From a virus (taxonomy: Duplodnaviria; Heunggongvirae; Uroviricota; Caudoviricetes): DNA of 14,997 bases. Of this stretch, positions 13,695 to 14,029 are shown in pieces. How positions within the stretch are numbered: the stretch's first letter is position 1; every line of letters begins with the position of its first letter. Location of the stretch: the IMG/VR virus record IMGVR_UViG_2874915312_000006; one strand, 5' to 3'. The notes below the pieces were generated by a model, which worked only from the letters and a program-made list of their open reading frames with translations, searched no databases and was not told the DNA's origin. Made by a program: the position numbers and the translations under genes.

Positions 13695-13738
13695 GTTGGA
13701 GTCATTACCCTTATCCTTTTAGATTAGATGAATATGCT

Positions 13739-13975
13739 ATGATAGGGCATTCACCTTATGCCAATGAATGTAATAAAGATGAAGCTAAATTTAAACTACG
13801 AATATCATCATTTTTAGCTTCTGACATAGATAATGAATACGATCCATCATATGATTATGTTGGAAAATATGAAATTATCGCTTCACTTAATGAGTTAAAA
13901 ACTAGGTTAAGTACTCTTCATGTAAACTTGGAGCAATTTATAAATTCATCGGAAGATGATGAGTATCCATTATAA
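13739..13975 (+). CDS. Small AT-rich ORF of unknown function (78 aa), possibly the 3' remnant of a larger gene cut by IS1
   Basis: Roughly one-third GC by eye against about half in the neighbouring phage genes. No convincing SD before the ATG, and the frame stays open upstream back into IS1. Followed by a strong terminator hairpin. Confidence 0.3.
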   Translation: MIGHSPYANECNKDEAKFKLRISSFLASDIDNEYDPSYDYVGKYEIIASLNELKTRLSTLHVNLEQFINSSEDDEYPL

Positions 13976-13990
13976 TAAGACAGAATAAAA

Positions 13991-14026
13991 AGCTAGGAAG
14001 GTTTTAAATCTTCCCAGCTTTTTTAA
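13991..14026. terminator. Bidirectional rho-independent terminator between convergent genes
   Basis: Stem AGCTAGGAAG / CTTCCCAGCT (10 bp, one mismatch) with loop GTTTTAAAT; followed by a T-run on the plus strand (TTTTTTAATATTT) and on the minus strand (TTTTTATTCTG). Confidence 0.6.
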
Positions 14027-14029
14027 TAT

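Follow-up and report, generated by a model that had tools for sequence, protein, structure and literature searches.

The window analysed here is a stretch of 14,997 nucleotides, of which positions 3739–14997 are shared, at 100% identity over the overlap, with GenBank CP026803.1, a 4.48-Mb chromosome. In its right-hand part an IS2 copy on the minus strand (11569–12899), carrying ORFs of the IS2 type with HTH_Tnp_1 and rve domains, joins the remnant of a prophage head module to the relic of an rhs locus. Next come 42 bp of intergenic DNA of the kind found between ybfA and the dcrB-like and rhs genes (12900–12941, plus strand), trapped between the IS2 and an IS1 of 768 bp (12942–13709, plus strand), which has its insA and insB ORFs and both terminal inverted repeats. 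An AT-rich segment follows, which contains one ORF, a 78-codon reading frame on the plus strand (13739–13975). It is separated by a hairpin (13987–14023) from a convergent gene on the minus strand (14030–14359), which encodes a SymE-family toxin-like protein of 109 aa (Pfam SymE_toxin, E = 4.9e-20). A second IS2 copy lies at 543–1873, and the terminase gene (10840–11607) is cut by the copy at 11569–12899. Beside this IS2-cut phage head module the window also contains a phage integrase fragment, two other IS3-family elements and an ipaH NEL-domain fragment.

The segment owes its description as AT-rich in the first-pass annotation to a GC content of 0.29 between 13710 and 14003, to be compared with 0.52 for both the whole window and the SymE-like gene. 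The small ORF described there is likewise present with the sequence quoted; its product is acidic, with a pI of 4.46 and 15 Asp and Glu residues against 7 Lys and Arg. Upstream, the frame does stay open into IS1, as had been noted: the first stop is met at 13649–13651, well within the element, whose end is at 13709. Between this stop and 13739 there is no in-frame ATG, GTG or TTG. A fusion protein with InsB of IS1 was rejected, both for this lack of a start and because the reading frames differ. At such a composition, the probability that a given frame stays open over 87 codons by chance is about 4e-4. When the 320 nt were shuffled 5000 times, a stretch of this length appeared in any of the six frames in only 33 cases. 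Since the frame is longer than expected by chance on both measures and conserved protein homologues exist, the ORF is more than a chance opening.

Searches with the protein of the extended frame retrieved relatives of 126 to 127 aa from Shigella flexneri (99% identity), Kosakonia cowanii, Xenorhabdus griffiniae and metagenomic contigs, and a cluster look-up added a member from Salmonella enterica. Homologues occur in Salmonella, Kosakonia, Xenorhabdus, Lonsdalea, Citrobacter, Enterobacter and Gilliamella, and the gene is intact in many S. flexneri. Against the 126-aa S. flexneri protein P0001, the window aligns with 99% identity over residues 40–126. The ORF itself corresponds to residues 49–126, its start being the internal Met49 of the 126-aa ancestor, an invariant column in the family alignment. 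The ORF, which the first-pass annotation had been unable to place in any family, is thus not an orphan. The suspicion voiced there, of a larger foreign gene of which only the end is left beyond IS1, proved right, and the gene in question is horizontally mobile. An exhaustive profile search of 1.84 billion cluster representatives returned only 28 relatives, about a dozen of them full-length (125–133 aa), and on this count we take the family to be real but rare.

The family is characterised by an N-terminal motif LL.G..L.KEI...R.W.E and by a C-terminus ending in D.YPL. Among 15 members with identities down to 33%, four N-terminal positions do not vary (L8, E16, W27 and E29) and three hardly do (L7, G10 and L13); all seven are lost from the window. 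Most of the invariant positions of the family are kept, namely those in AKFKLR, SSF, DI.N, DPSY, VG.Y and the terminal DDEYPL. In an AlphaFold2 model of the immunity protein, which is of modest confidence (pLDDT 64, pTM 0.61), two of the four beta-strands, at residues 11–16 and 27–34, lie in the deleted part. Pfam, NCBIfam, PADLOC and the PDB provided no family for the remnant, the full-length immunity protein, the toxin domain described below or their alignments. Matches to BRK and Pih1_CS were weak, fell below threshold and were discarded.

The genomic context of the intact gene points to its role. In the S. flexneri loci L002, L003, L018 and L019 the 126-aa gene begins 3 nt past the stop codon of an Rhs gene, and its downstream neighbours are those known from the window, namely the SymE-like gene, ybgA and phr. 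According to the literature, Rhs C-terminal toxins start at a PxxxxDPxGL motif, small immunity proteins encoded beside the toxin neutralise these C-terminal domains via direct binding, and orphan modules are common (PMC7043789). In the alignment of the Rhs C-termini retrieved here the cores diverge up to a P-x4-DPLGL motif, past which a domain of about 120 aa is highly conserved in all. When toxin domain and immunity protein were compared by tblastn with every fetched locus, the toxin was found 3–30 nt upstream in 17 of the 18 loci that have a full-length homologue. The pairing spans at least seven named genera, the domain being present upstream in Shigella, Kosakonia, Xenorhabdus, Lonsdalea, Enterobacter, Citrobacter and Gilliamella as well as on metagenomic contigs, and it holds as far as Gilliamella, where identity has dropped to 58% for the toxin and 38% for the immunity protein. 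The lone exception is a stand-alone copy in Paenibacillus dauci with no toxin upstream. The Rhs partner itself varies: in the Kosakonia loci L004–L006 the immunity gene stands behind 5′-truncated orphan rhs fragments, and in Xenorhabdus and an ENA metagenome-assembled genome behind full-length Rhs genes, with a DcrB-family gene upstream in the latter genome. The immunity gene thus travels with one toxin domain past PxxxxDPxGL, independently of the Rhs core. Composition follows the classic Rhs pattern, falling from 60% GC in the Rhs core of L002 to 36% in the C-terminal toxin region and 29% in the immunity gene.

On the grounds of position, co-occurrence with the toxin domain and composition, we assign the 126-aa gene as an RhsI-type immunity gene, with a putative neutralising role that follows from where it stands and what it accompanies. 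In the intact state, the locus would encode a PAAR-Rhs protein with a polymorphic C-terminal toxin of about 120 aa past PxxxxDPxGL, and the acidic 126-aa protein encoded 3 nt downstream would bind and neutralise this toxin in the producing cell. The window matches the position by synteny, with the SymE-like gene, ybgA and phr downstream and the 42-bp relic of the ybfA side upstream, as compared with L002 and L019. It departs from a complete RhsI gene in its reading frame, from which codons 1–38 and the first base of codon 39 are absent. The toxin domain had no match by tblastn in the window nor in loci L009 and L010, where immunity residues 40–126 alone were found. That the ORF might be the tail of an Rhs toxin was dismissed, because it aligns to the immunity protein and the toxin domain is missing from the window. 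All fold matches for the Rhs C-terminal toxin domain were too weak to back an activity. Neither partner has a relative in Pfam, NCBIfam or the PDB, and in principle both the fold and the activity of this toxin-immunity pair could be new, while the two-thirds kept here might still be expressed and block a kin toxin as a minimal orphan immunity protein; we see a slim chance at best for this combination. The particular pair is absent from curated families, and the kind of cassette is already known.

The left boundary of the gene remnant is formed by IS1. DNA homology to the intact alleles of L002, L003 and L019 starts exactly at 13710, the base that directly follows the terminal ...CATTACC of the element. 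What remains (13710–13975, plus strand) comprises the last 2 nt of codon 39, codons 40–126 (13712–13972) and the stop codon (13973–13975), so that the first 115 nt of the immunity gene are absent and 262 nt of its 3′ end are kept. At the breakpoint between 13709 and 13710 the intact alleles read ...AAACCAT followed by CTTATCCTTTTAG..., and the window reads ...GGAGTCATTACC followed by the same CTTATCCTTTTAG...; over the longer junction, GGAGTCATTACC is joined to CTTATCCTTTTAGATTAG in the window, to be compared with AAACCATCTTATCC in the intact alleles. The IS1 begins with GGTAATGCTGCC... on its left and ends with ...GGAGTCATTACC on its right, and the right end is the endpoint of the deletion. 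Its 9-bp flanks, TTATGTTGT and CTTATCCTT, are unrelated, hence there is no target-site duplication.

Comparison with L019, from the complete S. flexneri genome SFBU1023, clarifies how this junction arose. The IS1 of L019 has the same left junction as that of the window. It is flanked by TTATGTTGT and TTTTGTTGT, a duplication matching in 8 of 9 bases past which the intergenic DNA continues, and on account of this flank match and the contiguous downstream DNA it represents a simple insertion. Downstream of it lie a dcrB-like remnant, rhs, an intact rhsI, the SymE-like gene and ybgA. The DNA of the window matches L019 from 1220 to 2013 and then from 6116 onward and lacks L019 positions 2011–6115, that is 4,105 bp. 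Because the matches stop at 2013 and resume at 6116, the allele of the window is an L019-type allele minus these 4,105 bp. An intact IS1, the missing duplication and one junction in common with a simple-insertion relative are the features of an IS1 adjacent-deletion scar. On the other side of the element, the 42-bp relic is 97.6% identical to E. coli GF3-3, where some 400 bp separate the site from ybfA upstream and some 365 bp from the dcrB-like gene downstream, and it is found exactly in L019 at 1222–1263. The earlier proposal to look for uninterrupted homologues of the locus was fruitful, as L002 and L019 show rhs, the 126-aa gene, the SymE-like gene, ybgA and phr in this order.

From these comparisons the following course of events is very probable. 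The S. flexneri lineage first acquired an IS1 at a site flanked by ybfA and the dcrB-like gene, and in the lineage of the window a deletion then extended from the right end of this element to codon 39 of rhsI. The 4,105 bp lost in this way included the dcrB-like remnant, the whole of rhs together with the toxin domain, and 115 nt at the start of rhsI. The decayed prophage was brought in by a rearrangement associated with IS2, 42 bp to the left of IS1. An identical scar would result if, in place of an adjacent deletion, the IS1 had recombined with another copy once present within rhsI. Loss of an immunity gene alone would be harmful where the Rhs toxin is expressed internally (PMC7043789), which makes sense of a joint loss of the toxin and the 5′ end of its immunity gene. 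We conclude, from the sequence comparisons, that the AT-rich segment is very probably the IS1-truncated and non-functional remnant, consisting of 3′ end, 3′ UTR and terminator, of the immunity gene of an rhsC-type locus in an S. flexneri chromosome.

The remnant could at most encode residues 49–126 from the internal Met, residues 1–39 being removed by the deletion and residues 40–48 being out of reach for want of a start codon. As the N-terminus is lost, no Shine-Dalgarno sequence is visible and the toxin partner is gone, the remnant is most likely a pseudogene. The opposite reading would see in the 78-aa product a functional truncated orphan immunity protein directed against the toxin of kin S. 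flexneri, whose transcription would start at an internal promoter or reach it from IS1 by read-through. The retention of most invariant family positions in residues 49–126 would suit it, and no terminator was detected between insB and the ORF. The part lost with residues 1–48 includes, however, the invariant L8, E16, W27 and E29 and half of the modelled beta-sheet, and the ATG at 13739 is preceded by TTAGATTAGATGAATATGCT, in which no Shine-Dalgarno match was found. Weak sigma-70-like matches do exist in the region, but the promoter scan gave 5 sites where 2.2 were expected, each scoring 9/12, and of the three on the plus strand those at 13821 and 13827 fall inside the ORF. The distribution of the short form can also be read in two ways. 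The exact 78-aa ORF, annotated as a hypothetical protein of S. flexneri (WP_234426370.1), is present on 4 contigs including CP026803.1, and a second member of the 78-aa cluster on 110; some of these 78-aa calls are nonetheless mere contig-edge artefacts of intact alleles, such as L011–L013, which begin 2 nt before the ATG. Toxin-bearing intact alleles are common in S. flexneri, the 126-aa form being present on at least 1000 contigs, but the rhs genes of these relatives are themselves decayed: that of L019 has an internal deletion of 1,263 bp relative to GF3-3, and its dcrB-like chaperone gene is truncated. S. flexneri is reported to have no active type VI secretion system, which makes the arrival of an Rhs toxin from kin improbable. 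On relaxed selection the sequence of the remnant is silent either way, as it hardly differs from the intact alleles. Taken together, these points make a functional product very unlikely, and we retain the reading of the segment as a pseudogene.

The hairpin between the remnant and the SymE-like gene folds with −16.6 kcal/mol on the plus strand (z = −3.9) and −18.6 kcal/mol on the minus strand (z = −4.6). It is flanked by the convergent stop codons, at 13975 and 14030, and by A and T runs, so that U-runs trail it on both strands and it can act in both directions. The first-pass annotation was thus correct in assigning a bidirectional terminator common to the ORF and the SymE-like gene. Homology between E. 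coli and the window starts at 14004, in the loop of the terminator, and runs through the SymE-like gene and ybgA with at most 96.6% identity. Since the homology begins in the loop, the left arm of the hairpin belongs to the variable cassette. The AT-rich segment itself was absent from 5,426 complete RefSeq E. coli genomes in DNA searches run in near and distant modes. Of the whole remnant, the terminator alone probably still serves a purpose, in ending transcripts of the SymE-like gene and those that read through from IS1.

In S. flexneri L002 and L019, as in E. coli C10 and GF3-3, the SymE-like gene is found at the position that it has in the window. Behind the immunity gene of Xenorhabdus, Lonsdalea, ‘Bacterium BS0013’ and metagenomic contigs there is likewise a SymE-like gene or a 3′ fragment of one, in some cases one copy after each orphan module. 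The SymE-like 3′ end with its terminator looks like a reiterated 3′ border of such Rhs arrays, and the link between SymE and the remnant is positional, as a conserved 3′ border of this type of Rhs locus. It was from this neighbour that the first-pass annotation had raised the possibility of a defence or restriction island and of the leftover of a defence gene. The symE gene of E. coli K-12 is a neighbour of hsd and mrr, and the presence of a SymE-family gene next to a segment of AT-rich, foreign composition would be compatible with the leftover of an anti-phage defence or restriction-modification gene. Against this, none of the four sequences compared with PADLOC (remnant, full-length protein, toxin domain and SymE-like protein) had a match with an E value of 1 or less, and Pfam and NCBIfam revealed no nuclease, methylase or defence domain. 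Apart from the stand-alone Paenibacillus copy, moreover, the intact homologues lie directly behind an Rhs toxin domain and not in a restriction island. An origin from such a gene has next to no probability. The argument from SymE to a restriction island does not apply to a gene that borders this type of Rhs locus, and ‘defence’ describes the immunity partner of an Rhs toxin only loosely, in the sense of self-protection of bacterium against bacterium.

Two small-RNA families also matched the region. A full-length match to the isrA family (RF01385 in Rfam) extends over 14160–14288 on the plus strand and is antisense to the SymE-like coding sequence; with 121.1 bits and E = 5e-28 it clearly exceeds the gathering score, which is 51. 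The second, Ssr1 (RF02627), aligns to 13768–14329 with an E value of about 1e-27 and raises the question of whether the segment acts as a small RNA locus like the ‘Ssr’ loci of Shigella, non-coding and with the ORF incidental. In S. flexneri 2a 301, Ssr1 lies directly after the Rhs-family gene SF0268, and Ssr6 and Ssr32 are predicted RNAs between SF4458 and SF0680 (PMC4782007). The position of Ssr1 is what would be expected if Rhs, immunity and SymE-like genes formed a paralogous arrangement there, and Ssr6 and Ssr32 might correspond to the locus of the window. The Ssr1 score of 101.5 bits is, however, far below the gathering score of 820. Its well-aligned model positions, about 380–654, correspond to about 14000–14329 of the window, that is to the terminator and the strand antisense to the SymE-like gene, whereas the AT-rich segment aligns with low posterior probability. 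The protein is conserved across genera, which shows that the sequence evolved as a coding gene. We consider a small RNA locus most improbable and keep to the assignment of the segment as a remnant of rhsI. Ssr1 and the locus of the window resemble each other in lying past an Rhs-family gene and in the terminator and SymE-antisense strand; they differ in that Ssr1 belongs to another locus (SF0268/yafV) and in that the AT-rich remnant itself is not homologous.

For annotation, these results mean that the ‘hypothetical protein’ WP_234426370.1 called in some S. flexneri is most likely a 5′-truncated Rhs immunity pseudogene. Together with the 120-aa toxin domain, the intact 126-aa protein makes up a putative toxin-immunity family that lacks annotation and is a candidate for catalogues of polymorphic toxins. 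The locus also displays, base by base, how IS1 and IS2 erode a locus of interbacterial competition, in keeping with the known decay of Shigella genomes. Rhs/RhsI cassettes and their IS-mediated decay in Shigella are well known, and no new biological question arises from the locus.

The rhsC-type loci of E. coli are among the closest known systems. In C10 and GF3-3 the site is occupied by ybfA, a dcrB-like gene, a gene for an RHS-repeat protein of about 1,555 aa, one or two small hypothetical genes, a SymE-family gene, ybgA and phrB. The E. coli K-12 rhsC locus, with ybfA, rhsC, ybfB, orphan fragments and ybgA, occupies the same chromosomal site. The locus of the window shares with C10 and GF3-3 the site from ybfA to ybgA-phr and the order of dcrB-like gene (Eag-type chaperone), PAAR-Rhs, small gene and SymE-like gene, but the cassette of toxin and immunity gene differs, that of the window being found in none of the 5,426 E. 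coli genomes. Adjacent deletion is classical IS1 behaviour, and nothing about the present case is unusual in this respect, with an intact IS1, a left junction fixed as in SFBU1023 and no duplication. Finally, the intact gene resembles the RhsI genes of the main and orphan rhs of Salmonella Typhimurium SPI-6 (PMC7043789) in being a small ORF on the same strand a few nt past the rhs stop, in its pairing with one C-terminal domain past PxxxxDPxGL, in its AT-rich composition beside a GC-rich core, and in its occurrence behind orphan rhs fragments as well.

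The SymE-like gene (window 14030-14359, − strand), which converges on the IS1-truncated remnant of the RhsI-type immunity gene (13710-13975, + strand), has counterparts in the same position in several other Rhs loci. In Xenorhabdus, Lonsdalea, 'Bacterium BS0013' and metagenomic contigs, the RhsI-type immunity gene has on its 3' side either a whole SymE-like gene or the 3' end of one (residues ~68-108), namely at 8566-8763 in locus L014, 9393-9515 in L015 together with a short remnant at ~8420-8460, 974-1231 and 2427-2537 in L016, 2207-2329 in L017, 1604-1714 in L020 and 2633-2758 in L021. 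Of the two occurrences in L016, the second comes after the next orphan module. Together, the terminator and the 3' end of the SymE-like gene look like a conserved and reiterated 3' border for Rhs arrays of this class. In the Xenorhabdus griffiniae locus L014, a module that combines a SymE-like gene with genes for an XRE-type HTH protein and a primase (Toprim) occurs as two tandem copies (8488-13237 and 14895-16384), which directly adjoin the Rhs immunity gene on its 3' side. An integrase gene follows the first copy, and the second reaches past the end of the locus; the SymE-like gene of L014 therefore belongs to an integrative element.

The length of the gene varies. It encodes 109 aa in the window and in E. 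coli C10, but 95 aa in the S. flexneri loci that carry an intact immunity gene (L002, 4421-4708; L019, 6436-6723), where it is 14 codons shorter because of a 42-bp deletion. Homology to E. coli starts within the loop of the terminator hairpin, at window position 14004 corresponding to position 8001 of the E. coli locus L001. The left arm of the hairpin is part of the variable Rhs cassette and is still complementary to the conserved right arm, the two arms being AGCTAGGAAGG/CTTCCCAGCT in the window compared to GCCGGGTAAGA/TCTTCCCGGC in E. coli C10.

At the S. flexneri SFBU1023 locus (L019), the IS1 element at position 1264 lacks the first 21 bp of the left end when compared to the window copy. 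The rhs gene of this locus (2611-5998) shows an internal, in-frame deletion of 1,263 bp relative to E. coli GF3-3, and it carries a frameshift that is absent from L002 and may be a sequencing error. Outside the Enterobacterales, a homologue of the immunity protein (128 aa, ending in ...DKYPL) is encoded at 5950-6336 of L024, from the Firmicute Paenibacillus dauci. The gene stands alone, directly preceded by that of a LacI-type regulator, and no toxin domain was found upstream of it in this locus. This homologue appears to represent an orphan immunity gene well beyond the Enterobacterales.

In the remainder of the window, a fragment at 3367-3750 on the + strand, lying between IS3-family elements, codes for the C-terminus of an IpaH-type NEL E3-ligase domain (Pfam NEL, E = 2.5e-15); it is a Shigella hallmark gene cut down to a stub. 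A decayed prophage occupies positions 1-570 and 6053-11607 on the − strand. It retains part of an integrase at the window edge, and its head module encodes the major capsid protein, a cement protein, DUF2213, a Mu F-like protein, the portal protein and a C-terminal portion of the large terminase, whose gene is cut by IS2 at ~11569.

Published S. flexneri small RNAs may bear on the interval around the remnant. Ssr1 (Rfam RF02627) gave a partial match at window 13768-14329 (+ strand; score 101.5 bits, gathering threshold 820), in which good alignment is confined to the terminator and to the strand opposite the SymE-like gene. In S. flexneri 2a 301, Ssr1 lies between yafV and the Rhs-family gene SF0268 (PMC4782007). 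Taken together with the partial match, this location implies that the published 'Shigella-specific sRNA' region may overlap a paralogous locus where an Rhs immunity gene and a SymE-like gene are arranged in the same way. Ssr6 and Ssr32 (SF4458/SF0680) were predicted in S. flexneri 301 at 712,385-712,787 of NC_004337, flanked by a late-numbered ORF and an opposite-strand gene, and one of the two was positive by RT-PCR (PMC4782007, Table 1). Their interval could be the window's own, with IS1, the remnant and the SymE-like gene.

Finally, the isrA small RNA family (Rfam RF01385) matched over its full length at window 14160-14288 on the + strand (score 121.1 bits, gathering threshold 51; E = 5e-28), where it runs antisense to the central part of the coding sequence for the SymE-like protein. 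This antisense position suggests that the SymE paralogue in the window has an antisense-RNA partner, in principle like SymR/SymE.
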